Source: an uncultured bacterium
GTDB lineage: Bacteria; Actinomycetota; Thermoleophilia; Solirubrobacterales; 70-9
DNA length: 64,000 bases
Direction of reading: 5' to 3'
NCBI GenBank assembly: GCA_963803305.1
Contig: CAWDLT010000009.1
Coordinates: 333,347 to 397,346 of the forward strand
Under the pieces are notes generated by a model. That model ran no database searches. It had not been told where the DNA came from and saw only the letters and a list, made by a program, of their open reading frames with translations. Both the position numbers and the translations under genes were made by a program. This document shows positions 5,057 to 49,465 of the stretch, piece after piece (position 1 is the stretch's first letter; each line of letters opens with the position of its first letter).

Positions 5057-5217
5057 CTCCGCCGAAAGCGTCGCCTCCGGCTCCGGAATGACGCCGCCGG
5101 CTGCTCGCCGGAACAACTCCGCCGGAAGCCTCGCCTACGGCTACGTTTCCGGCGGGTTGCAACGCGTTACCGACCGGCAGGACGTAGCCGCCTGCACCGC
5201 GACTTCGTCGCTAGCCC
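5057..5217. repeat. Non-coding copy (1.5 units) of the family-D ~100-nt repeat
   Basis: 5117-5217 aligns end to end with the copy inside rpsQ (24578-24677). It shares the first ~41 nt with 5 mismatches and an identical last 20 nt, cgcgacttcgtcgctagccc. It lies between the convergent dacB and ligA genes. Confidence 0.7.
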
Positions 5218-14320: not shown

Positions 14321-14416
14321 CAGTGAATCACCGACTGCACACGCTGCTCGCGGCGCCGTCGTGTAGGCCTGGTGAATGCGAAAAGCTTTTGGTTGCGGCG
14401 CCGCTCCATCACGTTT
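14321..14416 (-). repeat. Family-B intergenic hairpin element (copy 1, rpsM-rpsK spacer)
   Basis: The plus strand reads atcaccgactgcacacgctgctcgcggcgccg...cggcgccgc. The motifs are shared with 14801-14901 and 22193-22369. GCGGCGCCG/CGGCGCCGC form a 9-bp stem. Confidence 0.7.
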
Positions 14417-14800: not shown

Positions 14801-14901
14801 CTAGATCACCACCAGCACATGCTGCTCGCGGCGCCGTTGTATGCGCGCCCGATCGATTCGAAAAGTCCCTGTTTGCGGCACCGCGCCAAACATCATCCGC
14901 C
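14801..14901 (-). repeat. Family-B intergenic hairpin element (copy 2, rpmJ-rpsM spacer)
   Basis: The plus strand reads atcaccaccagcacatgctgctcgcggcgccg...cggcaccgcg. The 10-bp stem contains a G-U pair only when read as minus-strand RNA. Confidence 0.7.
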
Positions 14902-17740: not shown

Positions 17741-18007
17741 CGGCAGAGCGCGTGGTCAAAGATCGAGCGGGACGAGGACATCAAACGACGGGGACATCGA
17801 GCGGGATGAGGACATCAAGCGGACGCGGAACACCGAACGGACGCGAGGGTCGGCACGCCGAATCGAAAGGACCCGCAAACGGGCCCAAAAACCAAACAGG
17901 TCGGTGGACGCAGGCCAATCGGCGAAGCGAGCTTAGTTTAAATCTAAGTGAGCGAGGCGATTGGCCGAGGACGCCGAGATGCGCCGGTTTGCAGGGCCCG
18001 CGCCCGT
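17741..18007 (-). repeat. Repeat-rich 267-nt secY-adk spacer (family-A-related element plus a 26-nt direct repeat)
   Basis: 17918-18005 carries ggacgcagg...gaggacgccg...cggtttgcag, the same flanks as 35521-35611. 17759-17790 and 17796-17827 repeat atcgagcggga(c/t)gaggacatcaa. Confidence 0.6.
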
Positions 18008-19279: not shown

Positions 19280-19926
19280 TAGGAAACACCTCCGCCGGAG
19301 GCCTCGCCTTCGGCTGCGTCTCCGGCGGGTTCGGGCTCCGGCGTGGCGGCAGGCACCTCCGCATCTACCGCGGCTTTGCCGCTAGCGCCATCGCGTCCAC
19401 CTTGGGCCGTCTTGGCAGCGGGCTCGCTGCTCTGATCGATGAGCTCGCAGCTGCCGCCGGCTTTTTCGATCTTGTCCTTGGCGGTGGCGCTGAAGGCATG
19501 GGCCTTGACGGTCAGCTTCTTGGTCAGGTCGCCCCTGGCCAGGATCTTGACCGGATGGCGGCGCTTGGCGAGCCCGGCCGCGCGCAGCGTCTCAAGGGTC
19601 ACCTCATCGCCGGCGGAGAACCGCTCCTCGAGGTCGGAGACATTGACCGGCTGGGTGTGGGTCCGGAAGGGCTCGAACGGCATCGACATCTTCTTGTGCG
19701 GGCCGCGAAGCTTCCTGGTCCGCATGTGGATCGGGTTCTGGCCGCCCTCGTAGCCGGGCTTTCTCTTGTTGCCCGACCGGGCGCCGGCGCCCTTGTGCCC
19801 GCGGCCGGAGGTCTTTCCGAGCCCGGATCCGCCGCCGCGGCCGCGGCGCCTTCGGGGATGCCGCGAGCCCGGCTTGGGGCGGATCGTGTGGAGCCCGACC
19901 TCTTCGGGATCGAGGCGGGGAGTCAT
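19279..19926 (-). CDS. rplO: 50S ribosomal protein L15 with a ~65-aa acidic C-terminal extension
   Basis: The L15 core is GRGHKGAGARSGNKRKPGYEGGQNP. The tail ends [30 protein letters not shown] and is encoded by the family-D repeat. Confidence 0.9.
   Translation of the reverse strand: MTPRLDPEEVGLHTIRPKPGSRHPRRRRGRGGGSGLGKTSGRGHKGAGARSGNKRKPGYEGGQNPIHMRTRKLRGPHKKMSMPFEPFRTHTQPVNVSDLEERFSAGDEVTLETLRAAGLAKRRHPVKILARGDLTKKLTVKAHAFSATAKDKIEKAGGSCELIDQSSEPAAKTAQGGRDGASGKAAVDAEVPAATPEPEPAGDAAEGEASGGGVS
19290..19389 (-). repeat. Family-D ~100-nt repeat, copy inside the rplO 3-prime end
   Basis: The 60-nt core 19300-19359 is identical to 20134-20193 and 24588-24647. It contains the inverted repeat CCGCCGGAG-N19-CTCCGGCGG. 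Confidence 0.85.
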
Positions 19927-20103: not shown

Positions 20104-20772
20104 CTAGGCAACGGAACCCACATCTCCGCCGGAGGCCTCGCCTTCGGCTGCGTCTCCGGCGGGTTCGGGCTCCGGCGTGGCGGCAGGCACCTCGGCATCT
20201 ACCGCGGCTTCGCCGCTAGCGCCGGCGGCATTACCTTCGGTGGCCTTGTCGTTCTTCTCCAGGCCTAGGACCTGGGCGACGCTCAGGCCGCGGAGCTTGG
20301 CGACCTGCTCGGGGCGGCGCAGGCTGGTCAGGCCCTCCATCGTGGCCTTCACGAGGTTGATCGGATTCTGGGTTCCGATGCTCTTCGTGAGGACGTCTCG
20401 GATCCCGGCCAGCTCGAGCACGGCGCGAACGCCGCCGCCGGCGATCACGCCGGTTCCCGGACTGGCCGGCCGAAGGACCACGTGGCCGGCGCCGAAGCGC
20501 CCGATGATCCGGTGCGGGATCGTCTGGCCGTACATGGGAACGCGAACCAGGCTCTTGCGGGCGTTCTCGACCGCCTTCTGGATTGCCAGGGGGACCTCGC
20601 GCGCCTTGCCGTAGCCAATTCCGACCACGGAGCTCTCATCGCCGACCGCGACCAGGGCGGTGAAGGAGAAGCGCCTGCCTCCCTTGACGACCTTGGCCAC
20701 GCGGTTGATCTCGATCACTCGCTCCTGGAGGTCGAGTCCCTGCGGGCTGACTGTCTCGATGTCGTGGTTCAT
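20104..20772 (-). CDS. rpsE: 30S ribosomal protein S5 with a ~55-aa C-terminal extension
   Basis: The S5 core is [24 protein letters not shown]. The tail is [34 protein letters not shown]. Confidence 0.9.
20124..20223 (-). repeat. Family-D ~100-nt repeat, copy inside the rpsE 3-prime end
   Basis: It differs from the rplO copy at about 2 of 100 positions by eye. Confidence 0.85.
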
Positions 20773-22192: not shown

Positions 22193-22369
22193 ATCACCAA
22201 CTGCACATGCTGGTCGCGGCGCCGTTGCGTACGCACATCGCCTCTTTCATAGTCTCTGGTTTCGGCACCGCGCAACATCTCCAGCTACACATGCTGCTCG
22301 CGGCGCCGTTGCGTACGCATGTCGCCTCTATCGTGGTTTCTGGTTGCGGCACCGCGCATCAATCCTTGT
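22193..22369 (-). repeat. Family-B intergenic hairpin element, two tandem copies (rpsN-rpsH spacer)
   Basis: Each of 22193-22280 and 22281-22369 contains cacatgctg(g/c)tcgcggcgccgttgcgtacgca...ggtt(t/g)cggcaccgcgca. Confidence 0.75.
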
Positions 22370-24126: not shown

Positions 24127-24911
24127 CGGGGCGCTCGCTCCAGGATCTCGACCAGCCGCCAGCGCTTGGTGCGCGAGATCGGCCGGCACTCGATCACTCG
24201 GACGACATCGCCCTCGCCCGCCTCGTTGCCCTCGTCGTGGGCACGCAGCCGGCTCGTACGTCGGACCACCTTCTCGTAAGTCGGGTGACGCCTGACGATC
24301 GCGATCTCGACCGTGATCGTCTTGTCGCCTCCGGTCGAGACGACGCTGCCCTGCCGGACCTTGCGCGCTCCCGCCTCCCGCTCGGCGGGCGCCGTTCCGG
24401 TACCCGGCTCGCCACGCTTTGAGCGCTTGGCTGCGCGATGGCGCCTGCGGCCCTCGGCCGCCACCCCCCGGCGCTCGATCCGCTCCGCCGCCCGCTCCTC
24501 GGAGGAGCGGGATGGGCGTGCGGGACCGGACGCGCGCGATCGGCGGCGCTTTCGAAGCTCCTTCGGGGAGAGCACAACTCCGCCCGAGGCCTCGCCTTCG
24601 GCTGCGTCTCCGGCGGGTTCGGGCTCCGGCGTGGCGGCAGGCACCTCCGCAGCTTCCGCGACTTCGTCGCTAGCCCCATCGGCTTCACCTGCGGCCGCCT
24701 CTTCCGCGGCGGGCACCTCCGAAGCTACTGCGGCTTCGTCGCTGGCCTCGGCGGGTTCACCTTCGGCCGCCTCGTCTGCGGCGGGCTCCTCGGCCTCTGA
24801 CTCGGAGACGGGGCTGTCCTCCGGGGTCTCGTCGGCCTTCGGGGCGTCCTCCTCGGTGGCCTCTGGCTCCACGGTCTCTTCCTGTCCCTGCTTCTCTTCC
24901 TCAGCCATCAC
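24123..24911 (-). CDS. rpsQ: 30S ribosomal protein S17 with a ~180-aa N-terminal low-complexity extension
   Basis: The C-terminal 80 aa ([31 protein letters not shown]...RWRLVEILE) are S17. The upstream frame is open back to GTG 24911 / ATG 24908, which overlaps the rpmC stop (TGATG). Confidence 0.85.
24578..24677 (-). repeat. Family-D ~100-nt repeat, copy inside the rpsQ N-terminal extension
   Basis: It has the same 60-nt core and encodes [23 protein letters not shown]. Flanking sequence to ~24800 holds further partial D-like units. Confidence 0.85.
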
Positions 24912-25533: not shown

Positions 25534-26531
25534 CAGGTGGCCCCCTCCTCGGACGGAGCCGCGGCCCCGGGGACGGGGGTGGCATCGGGCGTCGGCTTCG
25601 GGGGCTCGGCGGGCTCCGTGGCGGCCGGCTCCTGCGGGACCGACTCCGGGCCCGGCGGCGGGGACGACTCCGGCGCCGCGGACTTGCCCTCCGCGCCTGC
25701 CGGTGCGGCTGCCGGGGGCGGTGCAGGCGACGTCGCGGGGGCCGCCGGGGGCTTCGCGGCGGGCGGCGACGCGCTCGCCCTTCCCGGGCCCTGGGCTGAC
25801 GGGCGCTTGTCGCGATCAGAGGCGGTGCGGGCGCCCGGTCGGCCCCGAGGCGTGCGACGGGCGATCCCGTCCGCCTCCTCGTCGGGCTGGCCGGTGCGGT
25901 AGCCCTCGGGCATCACCTCGCCCTTGTTGATCCAGCACTTGACGCCGATCCGCCCCGTCGTCGTCTTGGCCTCGACGAACCCGTAATCGATGTCGGCGCG
26001 GAGCGTGTGCAACGGGACGCGGCCGTCCGAATAACCCTCGGTGCGAGCCATCTCCGCCCCGCCCAGTCTGCCGGACACCTGGACCTTGACCCCCTTTGCG
26101 CCGGAGCGCATGGCGGAGGTCAGGGCCCGCTTCATGGCTCGGCGGAACGCGACCCGGTTCTGGAGCTGCTCGGCGATCGACTGCGCGACGAGCTTGGCGT
26201 CGAGCTCGGGGCGCTTGATCTCGCGGATGTTCACCTTCACGGGCTTGTCGGTCAGCTTGTGGAGGTCGCGCCGAAGGGCGTCCACCTCCGAGCCGGACTT
26301 GCCGATCACGATTCCGGGCCGCGCCGTGTGGATGTCGACGGTGACCTCGCCGCGCTGCTTGACGATCTGGATGTCGGAGAGGCCCGCATGGGCGAGCTTG
26401 CCCTGAATGTGGTCGCGGATCGCGATGTCCTCGAACAAGTAGTCGGCGAACTCGCGCTCGTTGAACCAGTTCGACTTCCAGTCGTGGATATAGCCGACTC
26501 GGAATCCCTCCGGATGGATCTTCTGTCCCAT
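25533..26531 (-). CDS. rpsC: 30S ribosomal protein S3 with a ~115-aa Pro/Ala-rich C-terminal extension
   Basis: The KH domain starts [23 protein letters not shown]. The tail is ...[30 protein letters not shown]...[24 protein letters not shown]. Confidence 0.9.
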
Positions 26532-26700
26532 CGCTAGCGGTACCTCCTTCTGCGGCAGTGCGACTCAGCCGGCGAAAACCGAGCCGGCCAAGGACGCAGC
26601 CACGTTGGCGTGCTTGAAGAGCACGCGAGGGCGCGAGGACGCCGGCCGGCAACGGTTTGCGGCCAGGTGAGGCGTGCTGTCGTGGGAGGAGTCACCGCTT
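26532..26700 (-). repeat. Family-A ~165-nt structured spacer (rplV-rpsC)
   Basis: About 90 percent identical by eye over its whole length to 29856-30021. It contains the gcgtgct-tgaag-agcacgc hairpin and the motifs aaggacgcagc, gaggacgccggccggcaacggtttgc and gtcgtgggaggagtcaccgc. Confidence 0.8.
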
Positions 26701-27072
26701 CTAGTCCTCGGTAGGCGTCAGGGCGACGCTGACGTGGGTGGTTCGCTTGTCGATCCGGGTCGCTCGCCCGCGAGCGCGGGCCCGCCAGCGCTTCAGGGTG
26801 GGGCCCTCGTCGACGCTGATCTCCGCAACCTGGAGCTCGTCGGCCACCAGCTCGTGGTTGGCCTCGGCGTTGGCGGCGGCCGAAGCGAGCAGCTTGCCGA
26901 TGTCTCGTGCGGCGCCGCGAGACGAGAAGTCGAGCAAGGTACGAGCTTCGGGCACCGGGAGGCCCCGCACCTGGTCGGCGACCAGGCGCGCCTTGCGCGG
27001 AGCGATCCGCGCGTAGCGGGCGCTCGCCCTCACGACGGGCGCCTTTGGTTCGCTGTCGGACTTGCCCGCCAC
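26701..27072 (-). CDS. rplV: 50S ribosomal protein L22
   Basis: Contains ARYARIAPRKARLVADQVRG. Confidence 0.95.
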   Translation of the reverse strand: MAGKSDSEPKAPVVRASARYARIAPRKARLVADQVRGLPVPEARTLLDFSSRGAARDIGKLLASAAANAEANHELVADELQVAEISVDEGPTLKRWRARARGRATRIDKRTTHVSVALTPTED

Positions 27073-27075
27073 CGT

Positions 27076-27348
27076 CTAGCGCTCCGACTTCGTTCCGGAG
27101 TGGGCCCTGAAGGTTCGCGTCGGGGCGAACTCGCCGAGCTTGTGGCCCACCATCGACTCCGAGATGAACACCGGCACGTGCTTTCGCCCGTCGTGGACGG
27201 CGATCGTGTGGCCGACCATCTCCGGGAAGACGGTCGACTTTCGAGACCAGGTCTTGATCATCTGCTTGTCGCCGCTCTCGTTCATCTTCTCGATCCGTGA
27301 CAGGAGCCGGTCCTCGACGAACGGGCCCTTCTTCGTTGAGCGTCCCAT
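27076..27348 (-). CDS. rpsS: 30S ribosomal protein S19
   Basis: Starts [16 protein letters not shown] and contains [11 protein letters not shown]. Confidence 0.95.
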
Positions 27349-27406
27349 CAGCCGCGGTGCCTCCTTGTGCGGCTGAGGCGCACGGTCGTGTAAGGAGTCA
27401 CCGCGG
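27349..27406 (-). repeat. Short family-A-type spacer (rplB-rpsS) lacking the ~108-nt internal block
   Basis: ggtgcctccttgtgcggc joined directly to tgaggcgcacggtcgtgtaaggagtcaccgc matches the two ends of 26532-26700. Confidence 0.6.
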
Positions 27407-28249
27407 TCACCTCTTCTTCTTTCCGCGTCGGCGCCCGCGGACGATCAGCGCGTCGGATCGCTTGCCCTTCTTGCGGGTCCGGTAGCCGAGCGTCGGCTTG
27501 CCCCAAGGCGTCTCCGGATGGCCTCCCGGCGTGTGATGCGCCTCGCCGCCGCCGTGCGGATGGTCGACCGGGTTCATCGCCACGCCACGGCTCTGGGGGC
27601 GGCGCCCCTTGTGGCGCGCCCGCCCGGCCTTGCCGAGCTTCACGTTCTGGTGCTCGGCGTTCGACAGGGTGCCGACGGTGGCGCGACACTCGGCCCGGAC
27701 CATCCGGGTCTCGGACGAGGGAAGCCTCAGGGTGACCATCGGTCCCTCCTTGGCCGCGACCTGGATCCCGGCGCCCGCCGCCCTGCCCAGCCGGCCGCCC
27801 TGGCCGGGCGTCAGCTCGACGTTATGGACCATCGTCCCGGTCGGGATCGAGCGAAGCGGCAGTGCGTTGCCCGGGCGGATGTCGACGCGCTCGCCGGACT
27901 CGACCTGCTCGCCCGGGCGCATGCCCTGGGGCGCCAGGATGTAGCTCTTGCGGCCGTCCGCGTAGTGGAGGAGCGCGATGTAGCAGGTGCGGTTCGGGTC
28001 GTACTCGATCGCGGCGACCTTGGCGGGAACACCGTCCTTGAGACGCTTGAAGTCGATCTGGCGATAGCGGCGCTTGGCGCCGCCGCCCCGGTGCCGCGAG
28101 GTGACCCGGCCGTGCGCGTTTCTCCCGCCGGACTTCGACTTGCCCCAGGTAAGCGCCTTCTCTGCCGGCTTGGCGGTCAGCTCCTCGCGCAGCTGGAAGG
28201 TCGCGAAGCGGCTCCCGGGCGAGGTCGGCTTTGACTTTCGAATCGGCAT
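27407..28249 (-). CDS. rplB: 50S ribosomal protein L2
   Basis: 280 aa, containing [22 protein letters not shown] and [11 protein letters not shown]. Confidence 0.95.
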
Positions 28250-28258
28250 CAGCTCGTC

Positions 28259-28552
28259 CTACTCGACCGCCGCGCCCTCGAACAGCTCGATCCGGTCGCC
28301 GGCGGCGAGCTGGACCACCGCCTTCTTCCACGACCGCGTGCGACCGCCGTGGACGCCCCGGCGCTTCGGCTTGGCGCGAACCTTGGATGTCCGCACCGCG
28401 GCGACCCGGACGCCGAAGACCTCCTCGACCGCGCGCGCGATCTGCGTCTTGTGGGCTCGGTCGTTGACCCTGAAGGTGTACTTGCCGTCCGTCATCAGGG
28501 CATAGCTCTTCTCCGAGACGACGGGCTCGATGATCACCTGACGAGCGTCCAT
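28259..28552 (-). CDS. rplW: 50S ribosomal protein L23
   Basis: Starts MDARQVIIEPVVSEKSYALMTDGKYTFRV. The longer ORF to 29053 is read-through over rplD. Confidence 0.9.
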   Translation of the reverse strand: MDARQVIIEPVVSEKSYALMTDGKYTFRVNDRAHKTQIARAVEEVFGVRVAAVRTSKVRAKPKRRGVHGGRTRSWKKAVVQLAAGDRIELFEGAAVE

Positions 28553-28554
28553 CG

Positions 28555-29244
28555 CTACTTCGACTCCTCGCCCGGCTTTGAGCCGGCGGCCGGATCGTCC
28601 GCGGCGCGACCGCGGTTCACCTCGGCGGCCCGGCCCGAGAGGACCTCGATCGCGCTCTGGGAGATCACGAGGGAGGCGTGGCCGATCAGGTCGGCCACCG
28701 TGACCTCGCCCGCCTGCATCACGGTGACCTCGGGAATATTGCGAAAGCTCTTCATCGCGTCGACCTCCTCGGGGTGGAGCACCACCAGGGTCGGCTCGCT
28801 GGCTCCCCACTTCGAGAGCGCTTCGGCCGCCCGCTTGGTCGCGGGCTTGTCGAAGCCCGCCCCGTCGAGCACGGCGAGGCTGTCCCGCGCGGCGTGCACC
28901 GAGAGCGCCGTCCGAAGCGCGCGCCGGCGCGCCTTGCGGTTCACCTTCACCGTGTAGCCGCGAGGCTTCGGTCCGAAGGCCGCGCCGCCGCCTCGGCGGT
29001 GCGGGACGCTCAGGGCGCCCGCCCGCGCCCGCCCGGTGCCCTTCTGGCGCCACGCCTTGGCGGTGGTCATCGCGACCTCGCCGCGCCCCAGCGTGGACGC
29101 GGTGCCGCGGCGGCGAGCCGCGAGGTCGGCGCGTGCCGTCTCGTAGACGAGAGACTCGTGGAACTCCTCCCCGAACACCGCCGAGGGAAGGTCGGCCTTG
29201 CCCTGCTTGCCCAGCATCGGCGCCTTGGTCGCGGCGGCGGCCAT
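28555..29244 (-). CDS. rplD: 50S ribosomal protein L4
   Basis: Contains [22 protein letters not shown], with a short charged C-terminal tail. Confidence 0.95.
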
Positions 29245-29855
29245 CAGTCCGTCCTCACCTCGACCGTGCCGCCCCGCGGCCCCGGAACCGCGCCCCTGAC
29301 CATCAGCAGGTTGCGGCCGGAGTCGATCTCGACCACCTCGAGGCGCCGCTGCGTGATCCGCTTGCCACCCATCCGGCCCGGCATCCGGATTCCCTTGAAC
29401 ACCCGCGCCGGATCGGCGCTGGCGCCGATCGAGCCCGGGGCGCGGACGTTGTGCGAGCCGTGCGAGACCGGGCCACGGGCGAAGTTGTGGCGGCGCACGG
29501 TGCCCTGAAAGCCCTTGCCGATCGCCGTCCCGGACACCTTGACGCGCTGGCCCGGCTCGAACTGCTCGACCGTGAGGAGCTCGCCGACCTCGTGCTCACC
29601 CTGGTCGCGGAACTCGACCAGGGTGCGCGAGGGATCGGCACCGGCCTTCTTCAGGTGCCCGAGCTCGGCCTTGGTCAGCTTTCGCTCCGCGACCCGTTCG
29701 AACGCAAGCTGCACGGCGGCGTAGCCGTCCTTCTCGGAGTCGCGGACGGCGGTCACCGGGCATGGACCTGCCTCGATCACGGTCACGGGGACGCGGGAGC
29801 CGTCGTCGGTGAACAGCTGGGTCATGCCGAGCTTCTTGCCGATCAGCGCGGCCAT
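29244..29855 (-). CDS. rplC: 50S ribosomal protein L3
   Basis: Starts MAALIGKKLGMTQLFTDDGSRVPVTVIEAGPC. The ATG at 29855 follows GGAAGGAGG. Confidence 0.95.
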   Translation of the reverse strand: MAALIGKKLGMTQLFTDDGSRVPVTVIEAGPCPVTAVRDSEKDGYAAVQLAFERVAERKLTKAELGHLKKAGADPSRTLVEFRDQGEHEVGELLTVEQFEPGQRVKVSGTAIGKGFQGTVRRHNFARGPVSHGSHNVRAPGSIGASADPARVFKGIRMPGRMGGKRITQRRLEVVEIDSGRNLLMVRGAVPGPRGGTVEVRTD

Positions 29856-30021
29856 CTCAGCGCTGCCTCCTTCCGCGCCAGTGCGACTCACCCGGCGAAA
29901 AACCGAGCCGGCCAAGGACGCAGCGACGGTGGCGTGCTCGAAGAGCACGCGAGGGCGCGAGGACGCCGGCCGGCAACGGTTTGCAGCCGGGTGAGACGTG
30001 CTGTCGTGGGAGGAGTCACCG
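29856..30021 (-). repeat. Family-A ~165-nt structured spacer (rpsJ-rplC)
   Basis: A near-duplicate of 26532-26700, including the SD-proximal and stop-proximal ends. Confidence 0.8.
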
Positions 30022-30342
30022 CTAAGTCTTGATCTCGATGTCGACCCCGGCGGGCAAAGCGTCCAGACGCTGAAGGGAGTCGATCGTCTTCGGGGTCGGC
30101 TGGTGGATGTCGATCAGCCGCTTGTGCGTTCGGATCTCGAAGTGCTCGCGCGAGTCCTTGTCCTTGAACGGGGAGCGGATCACGCAGTAGACGTTCTTGT
30201 CGGTGGGCAGCGGCACCGGGCCGGCCACACGGGCGCCGGTTCGCTGGGCCGTCTCGACGATCTCGCGGGCAGCCCTGTCTATGGCGTCGTGGTCGTACGC
30301 CTTGAGGCGGATCCGGATCTTGTTTGCGGTGATCGTTGACAT
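30022..30342 (-). CDS. rpsJ: 30S ribosomal protein S10
   Basis: Contains [25 protein letters not shown]. Confidence 0.95.
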
Positions 30343-30442
30343 CGGGTCCTATCGCGCAGATGGGGCGTCGCCCCTGTCGTGGGGCGCCGCCCCGGTCGTA
30401 TGTCCTTCCACTTTTCCCCCGCGGGGTGAGCCGCGGGCCTTG

Positions 30443-30467
30443 AAAGGGCCGGCGTTGGGGCCGGCCC
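30443..30467 (-). terminator. Hairpin plus short U tract just after tuf (terminator/attenuator ahead of the S10 leader)
   Basis: The minus strand reads GGGCCGGC-cccaac-GCCGGCCC followed by TTTC, 8 nt after the tuf stop. Confidence 0.5.
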
Positions 30468-30474
30468 TGAGCTG

Positions 30475-34826: not shown

Positions 34827-35371
34827 GCTTGCGGCGCGGGCGGGCGAGGCGAGGTGGAGTGCCGGAACGGATTCTGCCGTTCGCGTGCATCGTCTCGGCG
34901 CTGGTGCTGCTGGCCTCGGAGTTCATGACCACCTTCCAGCTCGTCTCACTGCCCGCGCCCGGGGGAGCCCCCCTTTGCGGCATCGAGGCGGCCGACCGCC
35001 ACCACGACGCGGTAGCCGTGATCGCGATCTTCGCCATCGTTGCGGTCCTGGTGGCCGTGTTGGCCGGATCCAGGCCGGCCGCCGTGGCGGTCGCGGTGGC
35101 GGGAGTGCTGGCGCTGTTGCTGTTCGCGATCGTCGACCTACCCAAGGCGAACGACGTCGGGACCATCTCCAGCGCCTGCAATGCCGCCAGCCAGGGCTTC
35201 GACGCCAAGGCCCTCCCCCAGGCCGGCTTCTGGCTCGAGCTGGTGGGAGGCCTCGCCCTCGCCCTTAGCGGGGTCGCCCTCGCGACCCTGAGCTCAGAGC
35301 AGCTCAGGGCCCTGCGGCCGGGCCGAAAGCCAAACACGCCGGCCGCGAAAACCGAGCAGACACCCAGGTAG
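34823..35371 (+). CDS. Hypothetical integral membrane protein, paralogue 2
   Basis: Same topology and equivalent motifs (AIVDLPKAN, GFWLEL). Its GTG start overlaps the stop of paralogue 1. The last ~10 codons run into the repeat array. Confidence 0.6.
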   Translation: MSLRRGRARRGGVPERILPFACIVSALVLLASEFMTTFQLVSLPAPGGAPLCGIEAADRHHDAVAVIAIFAIVAVLVAVLAGSRPAAVAVAVAGVLALLLFAIVDLPKANDVGTISSACNAASQGFDAKALPQAGFWLELVGGLALALSGVALATLSSEQLRALRPGRKPNTPAAKTEQTPR

Positions 35372-35620
35372 GGCGAGCTCAGGGACTCCAGCCCCGGCGC
35401 GCGCGCCCAACGCGGCCGGGCGCGAAAACCGAGCAGGGTCGCCCGGTAGGGCCAGCTCAGGGAATGCAACCCTCCAACCCGGGCGCGCGCCCAACGCGGC
35501 CAGGCGCGAAAACCGAGCAGGTCAAGGACGCAGGCTGAGTGGCGAAGCGAGCGTGCTCAGGCACGTGAGCGAGGCGCGAAGCCGAGGACGCCGGCATGCG
35601 GCGGTTTGCAGCGGCCGGGG
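35337..35620 (-). repeat. Composite repeat downstream of rpsG: three tandem ~77-84-nt units, the last extending into a family-A-type element
   Basis: gcgaaaaccgagcag occurs at 35345, 35422 and 35506. 35521-35611 carries aaggacgcagg...gaggacgccgg...cggtttgcag. Confidence 0.75.
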
Positions 35621-38572: not shown

Positions 38573-38726
38573 CCCTACCCAGCCGCCGAGCGCGGGCGCG
38601 ACGCCAACGCGTGGCGCCCCCTACCCAGCCGCCGAGCGCGGGCGCGACGCCAACGCGTGGCGCCCCCTACCCAGCCGCCGAGCGCGGGGGCGACGCCAAC
38701 GCGTGGCGCCCCCTACCCAGCCGCCG
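38573..38726. repeat. 46-nt tandem repeat, 3 full copies plus a 16-nt partial copy
   Basis: The unit ccctacccagccgccgagcgcgggcgcgacgccaacgcgtggcgcc occurs at 38573, 38619 and 38665 (one mismatch) and partially at 38711. It lies 75 nt beyond the rpoC stop. Confidence 0.85.
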
Positions 38727-47008: not shown

Positions 47009-47800
47009 TTACTCCTCGCTCTTCGTTTCCTCTTGGACATCTTCGCCGGGGGCTTCGTTCTCGGCGGGTTCGGCCTCCGACGCGGCGGCAGGCTGGGCCT
47101 CCTGCTCCGCCTCATCGTCGTCAGCCTCAGCGGACTCTTCATCGGGCTCACCGTCGGCCGGCCCCTCCGTGGTTGCCGGCGACTCATCGGCCGACGCGGC
47201 GGCCGCGCCGTCTTCGGCCCCGGCGGGCTCCTCCTCGGCGGCGGGCTCTTCCGCGGCGGGCTCTTCCTCGGCGACCCCGCCCCCGACCAGACCCTTCTCC
47301 TGGATCTGGCCCAGCGCGACCGCCAACCCGGAGACCATCGACGCGAGGCCCCGCACGAGCCCGGTGATCGGGCTCGCCGCGATCCCGACGAGCTGGCCGC
47401 GCAGAACGTCGAGGCCGGGGAGGCGGGCGATCGCCAGGAACTCGTCGGGCCCCAGCGGAGCTCCGTCCATGATCCCGCCCTTGTACTCGAGGATCTCGTG
47501 CTGCCTGCCGAAGGTCGAGATCGCCTTCGCCGCGGTCACGGCGTCGCCCTTGACGAAGGTCAGCGCCGTGGGGCCCTCCAGCAGCGGATCGAGCTCGGCG
47601 GTGCCGACCCGCTCGACGGCGCGCTTGGCGAGCCGGTTCTTGACTACTCGGAAGGTCGCGTCGGCCTCGGAGAGCTGAGCCCGAAGCTCGGCGGCCTGGG
47701 GAACGCTGATGCCCCGATAGTCGACCGCGAAGATCGCGCTCGCCTCACCGAGGCGATCGGCGATCTCGTCGACGAGGACTGATTTCTGCTCTTTGTCCAT
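47009..47800 (-). CDS. rplJ: 50S ribosomal protein L10 with a ~85-aa acidic C-terminal extension
   Basis: An L10 core (MDKEQKSVLVDEIADRL...) followed by ...EEPAAEEPAAEEEPAGAEDG...AEADDDEAEQEAQPAAASEAEPAENEAPGEDVQEETKSEE. Confidence 0.9.
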   Translation of the reverse strand: MDKEQKSVLVDEIADRLGEASAIFAVDYRGISVPQAAELRAQLSEADATFRVVKNRLAKRAVERVGTAELDPLLEGPTALTFVKGDAVTAAKAISTFGRQHEILEYKGGIMDGAPLGPDEFLAIARLPGLDVLRGQLVGIAASPITGLVRGLASMVSGLAVALGQIQEKGLVGGGVAEEEPAAEEPAAEEEPAGAEDGAAAASADESPATTEGPADGEPDEESAEADDDEAEQEAQPAAASEAEPAENEAPGEDVQEETKSEE

Positions 47801-49186: not shown

Positions 49187-49465
49187 CTTACTTCTGAATC
49201 TCTTGCGGATGCCTCCGGCATCCTTACATGCTGCTTTCGGGGCTAAAGCCCCTCATCGGGACCAAGAAGATCTTTCAGATTCTCCTGAATACCTTGCGGA
49301 TGCCTCCGGCATCCTTACATGCTGCTTTCGGGGCTAAAGCCCCTCATCGGGACCAAGAAGATCTTTCAGATTCTCCTGAATACCTTGCGGATGCCTCCGG
49401 CATCCTTACATGCTGCTTTCGGGGCTAAAGCCCCTCATCGGGACCAAGAAGATCTTTCAGATCTT
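49187..49465 (-). repeat. Family-C perfect tandem repeat, ~3 x 91 nt, between nusG and rplK
   Basis: cttgcggatgcc recurs at 49202, 49293 and 49384, and the copies look identical by eye. Each unit has the hairpins ggatgcc-tcc-ggcatcc and ggggct-aa-agcccc. The array abuts the nusG stop. Confidence 0.9.

Follow-up and report, generated by a model that had tools for sequence, protein, structure and literature searches.

Few known gene arrays are as compact or as conserved as the operons of ribosomal proteins, which raises the question of why one of them should hold two nearly identical spacers of about 165 nucleotides (nt). The locus lies in a 64,000-nt stretch of DNA (the window, whose numbering is used throughout) from an uncultured bacterium of the Solirubrobacterales (Actinomycetota, Thermoleophilia, 70-9; assembly GCA_963803305.1, contig CAWDLT010000009.1, positions 333,347 to 397,346), which carries a ribosomal super-operon of 68% GC on the minus strand. 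Pfam places S10 (30022-30342), L3, L2, S19, L22, S3, S7, SecY and Adk where they are expected. The rplV|rpsC spacer (26532-26700, 169 nt) and the rpsJ|rplC spacer (29856-30021, 166 nt) are 93.7% identical over 158 nt (BLAST E = 7e-62) and 92.7% identical over 165 nt, a likeness far above chance for a 64-kb window. The alignment bears out, at 93%, the initial annotation's estimate by eye of about 90%, and it agrees with that annotation that the 58-nt rplB|rpsS spacer (27349-27406) matches the long spacers at its two ends only. We consider it likely that the long spacers are copies of a non-autonomous palindromic element of about 162 nt, similar to a MITE (a small transposable element with inverted repeats), that sits at or next to stop codons. 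The 58-nt spacer would be a deleted copy, and the sub-family found here would be adapted to coupled genes by a short open reading frame (ORF) that bridges the flanking genes, which we call the relay ORF.

Whether such spacers belong to the operon can be read from its relatives. Six metagenome contigs (L001-L006) were obtained by an exact-protein look-up with the S10 protein of the window; across tuf-rpsC they are 92% (L001, L002, L006), 88.6% (L003) and 82.8% (L004) identical to it. Equivalent look-ups with L22, S19 and EF-Tu of the window returned no closer relatives. All three junctions differ between the window and these contigs, with both filled and empty orthologous sites. The rplV|rpsC junction measures 3-10 nt in all relatives (7-8 nt in the 92%-identical ones with the same S10 protein) and holds the element in the window only; copy 1, which fills it on the minus strand as a long-class element of about 162 nt plus flanking stop-like triplets (TAG...TAG), apparently arose after the split from those closest relatives. 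At rpsJ|rplC the window has a full element (copy 2, also on the minus strand), L001 and L006 have deleted forms of 41-42 nt, L002 has a deleted form of 57 nt, and L003 and L004 have unrelated spacers of 24-25 nt. At rplB|rpsS, L001 carries a full 164-nt element where the window has 58 nt, and in L002 and L004 stop and start are directly joined (TAGTG, TAGATG). From this pattern of presence and absence the spacers appear to be insertions, not ancestral sequence, gained and lost within 8% sequence divergence. The initial annotation had named as its opposite case that the spacers would be ancestral and unrelated to any dispersed repeat; the same spacers in relatives prove variable, and the element dispersed.

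The same comparison bears on a very different reading, in which the spacers would act in cis as regulatory RNAs conserved in the S10 operon (an attenuator, an RNase processing site or an autoregulatory ribosomal-protein site) and be duplicated because two junctions need the same control. Such RNAs would have the strong structure, the paired downstream Shine-Dalgarno sequence and the conserved core motifs described below, and some family members are indeed conserved in position: a copy after rpsG occupies the same place in L001 and L004 as in the window, its central hairpin differing in sequence. The long spacers, however, are missing from the same junctions in relatives that are 83-92% identical, and elements occur instead at other junctions and at non-ribosomal loci. 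Rfam returned only two tRNAs elsewhere when the whole window was searched at gathering scores, and no match for 26480-26750 even at E up to 10. The pattern of presence and absence already largely refutes this reading, and we regard it as highly unlikely.

The element is also widely dispersed. A metagenome scan with the left-arm sequence yielded 49 stretches, 45 of them real elements of the S10-type sub-family, which measure 162 nt at full length. In these soil metagenomes, ribosomal-protein genes flank 33 of the 45, at ten or more junctions that include rplN|rplX, rplX|rplE, rpsS|rplV, rplB|rpsS, rplF|rplR, rplD|rplW and rplV|rpsC; the other 12 follow ordinary non-ribosomal genes. Every scorable copy lies in sense orientation (all 33 ribosomal ones and those of the 12 others that could be scored). 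The two long copies of the window are each other's nearest neighbours (92.6% identity, as against at most 88.3% to any other copy), which points to copying within this genome, where one copy may have come from the other or both from a shared source in the genome, by transposition or gene conversion. Among the options listed in the initial annotation, a MITE is thus favoured by the variable presence and by the dispersal over junctions and loci, and a processing site, an attenuator or a protein-binding site is disfavoured by the lack of orthologous spacers in relatives and of any Rfam match. A few sub-family members are further altered: three (L142 1247-1450, L146 and L168) have an additional insertion of 33-36 nt inside the core (GCGAGCGAAGCGAGCGGTGCGAGCGCGAAGCGCGAG-like), and in L163 and L172 the 5' half of the core is replaced. 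These variants keep the relay frame, at 64-65 and 55 codons, respectively.

What, then, is the short spacer? The initial annotation took it for the empty site, a shared short spacer type into which a block of about 108 nt had been inserted. As it described, TGCGGC flanks the inner block of copy 1 on both sides (plus strand, 26551-26556 and 26658-26663), but copy 2 has no such direct repeat. Truly empty sites in the relatives measure 0-10 nt or are the unrelated 24-25-nt spacers, and short forms of the element show at least 10 different internal junctions, several of them at short direct repeats such as GCCG|CGGAAGG, with the reading frame kept in all. The 58-nt spacer is therefore not an empty site, and the insertion proposed at first does not hold. 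The short forms fit repeated internal deletions of the 162-nt unit, and by its ends-only match, its fold and the state of this junction in L001, L002 and L004, the rplB|rpsS spacer (27349-27406, minus strand) is evidently an internally deleted derivative that retains only the outer arms, between TGA...TGA flanks. The TGCGGC repeat is better read as microhomology at a deletion than as a target duplication. A nested arrangement, in which a short hairpin spacer is ancestral or empty, a short-class member of about 108 nt entered its loop, and TGCGGC is the target duplication, would agree with that flanking repeat in copy 1 and with the existence of a free-standing class of about 103 nt whose CTNAG-type ends resemble the inner block's own, and the 162-nt unit may itself, at a more remote time, have originated as a composite of this kind. 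The size of the empty sites and the many in-frame junctions speak against it for the present copies, as does the fact that the unit recurring at new loci is 162 nt long with conserved outer arms, and we find it improbable.

The imperfect palindrome takes in each spacer as a whole and not just its inner block: every spacer matches its own reverse complement, at E 1e-15 to 1e-18. The terminal inverted repeats of the element consist of the arms GCGGTGACTCCTCC... and ...GGAGGCACCGC, and the entire unit is self-complementary. Predicted minimum free energies (MFE) on the mRNA strand are -85.9 kcal/mol for copy 1 (z -4.3), -98.9 for copy 2 (z -5.9) and -30.4 for the short spacer (z -4.0). The predicted fold is a single end-to-end hairpin in which the downstream GGAGG pairs with CUCC just past the upstream stop. 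This GGAGG, in the right arm and about 10 nt ahead of the downstream start codon (ATG), is a Shine-Dalgarno sequence that the element itself brings, for rpsC at 26543-26547 (where it pairs with CUCC of the 5' arm), for rplC at 29866-29870 and for rpsS at 27360-27364, all on the minus strand and all paired in the predicted fold.

How could an essential operon tolerate such a hairpin between its genes? The answer may lie in the left end of the S10-type sub-family, which reads stop-(0-3 nt)-GCG GTG ACU CCU CCC. Its GTG stands 2-5 nt past the upstream stop, and in full copies the frame is open for 53 codons across the whole hairpin, until a stop codon that either shares bases with the downstream start or directly adjoins it (TGATG, TAATG, TAGATG or TAGCGATG). 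Many upstream genes end in a run similar to a Shine-Dalgarno sequence, such as AAGAGG in rplB, which now lies 6-9 nt before the GTG. One copy has ATG in place of GTG. The three window copies illustrate the arrangement (all minus strand, by frame analysis). In copy 1 (26534-26695) the GTG lies 5 nt past the rplV stop and the frame runs for 53 codons to a TAG 2 nt before the rpsC ATG. In the deleted copy (27348-27410) a GTG overlaps the rplB stop (GTGA) and the frame has 20 codons, 17 of them from the element's own GTG, ending in a TGA that overlaps the rpsS ATG (TGATG). In copy 2 (29888-30019) the GTG lies 2 nt past the rpsJ stop and the frame is truncated at 43 codons; without one extra T it would have 53 codons and end at the TGA in TGAGATG.

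The relay frame survives changes in length. It is kept in variants of 12, 13, 15, 16, 17, 18, 54, 55, 64, 65 and 77 codons, and in 17 of 18 length variants overall, the only break being copy 2 of the window; if these events were independent the probability would be about 1e-7, and ten events would still give p < 2e-5. Among 24 full copies, the frame read from the GTG is free of stops in 22, compared with one or two for each of the other two frames. One might suppose from the open frame and the conserved start and stop codons that it encodes a functional small protein repeated in the genome, but the three codon positions do not differ in nucleotide diversity (0.151, 0.132 and 0.170; p = 0.25), which is without periodicity, and the frame tolerates both deletions down to 12-18 codons and insertions up to 77. 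The peptide is, moreover, of low complexity and rich in Arg, Pro and Ser, and a search of 5.8 billion predicted proteins returned one homologue; gene callers do not call the relay ORF, so a protein search of this kind is unfit as a census. A functional small protein is, in our judgement, extremely unlikely. Equal diversity at the three positions, together with an open frame, indicates instead that the openness of the frame is under selection and not the peptide.

These features suggest how a MITE-like element could sit between translationally coupled genes, to which the sub-family appears adapted. Ribosomes that end the upstream gene would re-initiate at the element's GTG, and the translating ribosome would melt the hairpin as it reads the relay ORF. 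The relay ORF would then terminate at the downstream start, where ribosomes could re-initiate. Coupling would thus be kept across a 165-nt insertion, and the insertion would be nearly neutral in an essential operon. Such a mechanism would fit both the unfolding and the re-initiation models of coupling.

The S10-type elements are part of a wider family, defined by its core. Within the inner block this core reads GGCGUCCUCGG, then a hairpin, then CCCUGCGUCCUUG. Both the GCGTGCT-loop-AGCACGC hairpin and the GCGTCCT motifs noted in the initial annotation are present: the hairpin of copy 1 lies at 26608-26626, and the motifs, which read AGGACGC on the plus strand, at 26591-26597 and 26636-26642 in copy 1 and at 29915-29921 and 29960-29966 in copy 2. 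The covariance model of the block that the annotation had proposed was built (R1) and recovered four window copies as well as the dispersed family. The strand of R1 is the plus strand of the window, which puts GGCGUCC on the mRNA, and this holds for all four window copies. The matches on the minus strand are the core and inner arms of copy 1 (26563-26672, with its central hairpin; 61.4 bits, E = 4e-12) and of copy 2 (29886-29996; 75.9 bits, E = 1e-15), a diverged member directly after the rpsG stop (35508-35609; 38 bits, E = 1e-6; BLAST 67-68% to the long copies), which has a 50-nt central part and lacks the S10-type outer arms, and a diverged member directly after secY in the secY|adk spacer (17879-18001; 23.8 bits, E = 0.003). 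The two diverged members are additional to the copies listed in the initial annotation. The 144 nt past the rpsG stop fold no better than shuffled sequences (z +0.96). Downstream of this rpsG copy, at 35345-35533, a right-arm segment (CTGCTCGGTTTTCGCGCC...GGCCGCGTTGGGCGCGCGC) occurs three times with a period of about 77 nt and looks like a partial tandem duplication of one arm.

We scanned genome contigs, one genome per species, for the two motifs only (20 fixed bases). The core pattern occurs in at least 120 stretches, about 114 of them real among the matches listed, and these come nearly all from metagenome-assembled genomes of Solirubrobacterales, Thermoleophilaceae and Gaiellales, with a few from Acidimicrobiia. 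The same pattern gave 7 matches in 2.9 million viral contigs, all of them chance hits in coding DNA. Elements fall into size classes of about 103 nt and about 165 nt, many of the long ones ending in CTAG...CTAG. They abut stop codons, in contexts that are mostly tandem-sense or convergent; for the short class, crude gene calls based on the GC content of third codon positions gave +E+ 21 times, +E- 20, -E- 4 and -E+ once. Some loci hold three family copies in 8 kb. With its core conserved across Solirubrobacterales, Gaiellales and some Acidimicrobiia, the family appears to be mainly one of Thermoleophilia (Actinomycetota) and old. Searches of the literature by taxon, element type and motif sequence found no description of it and, being also without an Rfam match, it is uncatalogued.

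Its structure is supported by covariation. The two direct GCGUCCU motifs are near-invariant, and the central hairpin varies from copy to copy yet stays paired. Arms are complementary to their own partner only (score 24.9, versus 1.3 with swapped partners). Under a structure derived by hand, 82.9% of cells are paired, against 66% in shuffled and 27-43% in slid controls; compensatory change is seen at 28 of the 32 pairs. Among 104 copies aligned by R1 the figures are 90.5%, 58.9% and about 33%, although an alignment fitted to the model leans towards structure. We used pair counts on the hand-derived structure and the model-based alignment, as RNAalifold on a plain MAFFT alignment failed on the variable arms and gave a poor consensus; likewise, anchored arm extension replaced MFE folding with 110-nt flanks, which over-extended helices in this GC-rich DNA. 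In the 103-nt class the outer arms are specific to each copy and mirror the end of the upstream gene. In some of these copies (L022 2319-2425) the hairpin reaches into the upstream coding sequence, with an inverted copy of its last codons downstream, and orthologous sites in two genomes (L031 and L041) have the same core with quite different outer arms, a pattern that suggests templated extension or turnover of arms.

Several points weigh against a MITE-like element with a relay ORF. We infer relay translation from the conservation of the frame alone, and some of the insertion and deletion variants may share ancestry, which would bring the independent events below 17. Copy 2 itself has five T residues (AAAAA on the plus strand, about 29898-29902) where all other copies have four, and the change breaks its relay frame; it is either a real frameshift or a homopolymer error of the assembly. 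In its small size and its lack of a transposase gene the element itself agrees with a MITE; its only ORF is the 53-codon low-complexity frame without conservation at the protein level. Clustering 734 ORFs from 120 element-bearing loci of about 8 kb each gave housekeeping families only and no recurrent transposase-like protein or other candidate for a mobilising gene, a weak negative. Flanking triplets are identical in copy 1 (TAG...TAG), in the deleted copy (TGA...TGA) and in L165 (TAA...TAA), and in other copies they are non-identical and stop-like. These remain ambiguous as target duplications because the relay ORF needs a right-hand stop anyway, and selection for that stop could mimic a duplication. 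That the core is nearly invariant from order to order points to some function, be it in mobility or for the host, which our explanation leaves unaccounted for.

A further difficulty is an asymmetry between the strands. On the mRNA-sense (GGCGUCC) strand, isolated A.C oppositions outnumber G.T oppositions by 124 to 12, and the bias holds in copies antisense to their neighbours (27 to 3). The antisense strand also folds better (mean -84.4 versus -75.0 kcal/mol, a mean gain of 9.5 kcal/mol), in 77 of 102 copies (p = 3e-11), which the relay model does not predict. We reject cytosine deamination linked to transcription or to replication as a source of the A.C excess, since each would act in the opposite direction and the observed bias stays the same whichever way the genes point. 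One possibility is that a weaker mRNA hairpin was selected for and passed on to all copies; another is that the opposite strand is active, as single-stranded DNA or as RNA.

The second possibility leads to a reading in which the functional form is the opposite strand, as a single-stranded DNA substrate (HUH/RAYT-like, as in repetitive extragenic palindromes, REPs, and REPINs, where RAYT is the REP-associated tyrosine transposase) or as a structured RNA, either antisense or independent, to which a dedicated protein binds, with the intercistronic features secondary. On that strand G.U-compatible oppositions exceed A.C by ten to one, also in copies antisense to their neighbours; together with the better fold, the tandem G.A/A.G beside the central hairpin, and a core that stays invariant while the helices covary, this is what such a form would lead one to expect. 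Its complement, however, is the sense strand in all 45 S10-type and in 42 of 47 short-class copies, the neighbourhoods of about 8 kb around the elements showed neither RAYT nor Y1 transposase genes, and a weakened mRNA hairpin could produce the same asymmetry. We think this reading rather unlikely. In a related and equally tentative proposal, which we hold to be doubtful, the core (two direct GCGUCCU/AGGACGC motifs around a covarying hairpin with tandem G.A, within covarying arms) would be the recognition module of an undescribed mobilisation or RNA-protein system whose active form is the opposite strand. If true, this would make the family a new class of strand-specific hairpin element, distinct from ordinary MITEs driven by a transposase, and its sub-family with the relay ORF would have adapted to operons secondarily.

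Returning to the MITE-like element with its relay ORF, parallels exist in several known systems. Rickettsia palindromic elements are palindromic mobile elements that enter protein-coding genes in frame, so that the protein comes to include them. They share with the element described here the toleration of a palindromic mobile element in translated sequence through a kept reading frame, but here a separate short ORF bridges two genes. Leaders of ribosomal-protein operons, such as the L4-responsive S10 leader, are likewise structured RNAs with an occluded Shine-Dalgarno sequence (here by predicted fold); those leaders are conserved in position and single-copy, whereas our spacers are variable, dispersed and without an Rfam match. 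Mycobacterial interspersed repetitive units (MIRUs) are also dispersed actinobacterial repeats that lie between genes inside operons, in the orientation of the genes, with an internal ORF coupled to the flanking stop and start codons, and it has been proposed that this allows insertion with little effect on expression (PMC12548453, PMC3184786). MIRUs, however, are 40-100 bp long, often form tandem arrays (of 46-101-bp units) and have at most weak dyad symmetry; by that published description the present element is set apart, as a single near-perfect hairpin of about 162 nt with a conserved core and its own GGAGG, of presumably unrelated sequence and from Thermoleophilia.

Like the present element, the Correia elements (CREE) of Neisseria and the enterobacterial repetitive intergenic consensus (ERIC, or intergenic repeat unit, IRU) of Enterobacteriaceae, which are bacterial MITEs, are dispersed imperfect palindromes of 100-170 bp with terminal inverted repeats and variable presence, co-transcribed as long RNA hairpins and occurring in long and internally deleted size classes (PMC3184786). 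In those repeats the ends are conserved, TA is duplicated and the interior varies freely. In the present family, by contrast, the interior core is most conserved across orders, the arms differ by sub-family, insertion is at stop codons, and there is a relay ORF. REP, REPIN and CGTC-tagged repeats are extragenic palindromes too, often just past stops or between convergent genes, with strand-specific structural features, and our core motif has CGTC beside a palindrome (PMC3733652). Unlike our element of 100-170 nt, REPs measure 20-40 nt, with stems of 8-13 bp and an unpaired GTAG or CGTC tag at one end, inverted in head-to-head dimers, and CGTC REPs have not been reported in Actinobacteria (PMC3733652). 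Here the motifs that contain CGTC enclose a single hairpin as direct repeats, and the 8-kb neighbourhoods showed no RAYT. What we describe is a family of palindromes of the MITE/REP-like kind that has a MIRU-like relay ORF, brings a Shine-Dalgarno sequence of its own and colonises the ribosomal operons of Thermoleophilia.

Other repeats and structured segments occur in the same window. The tuf|rpsJ spacer (30343-30474, 132 nt) is kept in L001 and L002, holds a terminator-like hairpin followed by a second structured segment without an Rfam match, and is probably the true S10 operon leader. A second intercistronic repeat family, with a block of about 52 nt at 67-81% identity (14321-14416, about 14801-14899 and 22193-22369), lies in the rpsM|rpsK, rpmJ|rpsM and rpsN|rpsH spacers, the last with two units. 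These spacers also hold short ORFs, which begin close to the upstream stop and run to the downstream start or to a point next to it (30 codons, TGATG; 31 codons, TAG-GTG). Within coding sequence, a 136-nt repeat is 85-87% identical at 19286-19421, 20120-20255 and 24574-24709, with further occurrences at 5112-5158 and 47043-47093; a 51-nt stretch is 100% identical in three copies. The acidic C-terminal tails of L15 and S5 are encoded by it, as is part of an extension of the ORF in the S17 region; it may represent a segment of ribosomal-protein genes that is mobile in frame or was spread by gene conversion. Three tandem 91-nt units, 96-97% identical and lower in GC than their surroundings, lie between an rplK-like and a nusG-like gene (49191-49463) without an Rfam match, and three tandem GC-rich 46-nt units, 98-100% identical, lie directly downstream of rpoC (38573-38726).

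In answer to the question raised by this locus, compact ribosomal operons would have been repeatedly invaded by a hairpin element of 165 nt. A start just after the upstream stop, a stop-free frame, a stop on the next start and a Shine-Dalgarno sequence would together make it a self-contained coupling adapter, which suggests why it is tolerated. The principle proposed for MIRUs is now found in a presumably unrelated palindromic element, suggesting that relay ORFs may be a general route by which selfish DNA enters operons. Models that explain translational coupling by re-initiation or by RNA unfolding could be tested on the element as a natural system, and gene callers and RNA-motif screens applied to these genomes should mask or model it. 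For the poorly studied and ubiquitous soil actinobacteria that carry it, the family adds an abundant, uncatalogued and structured repeat with strong covariation.

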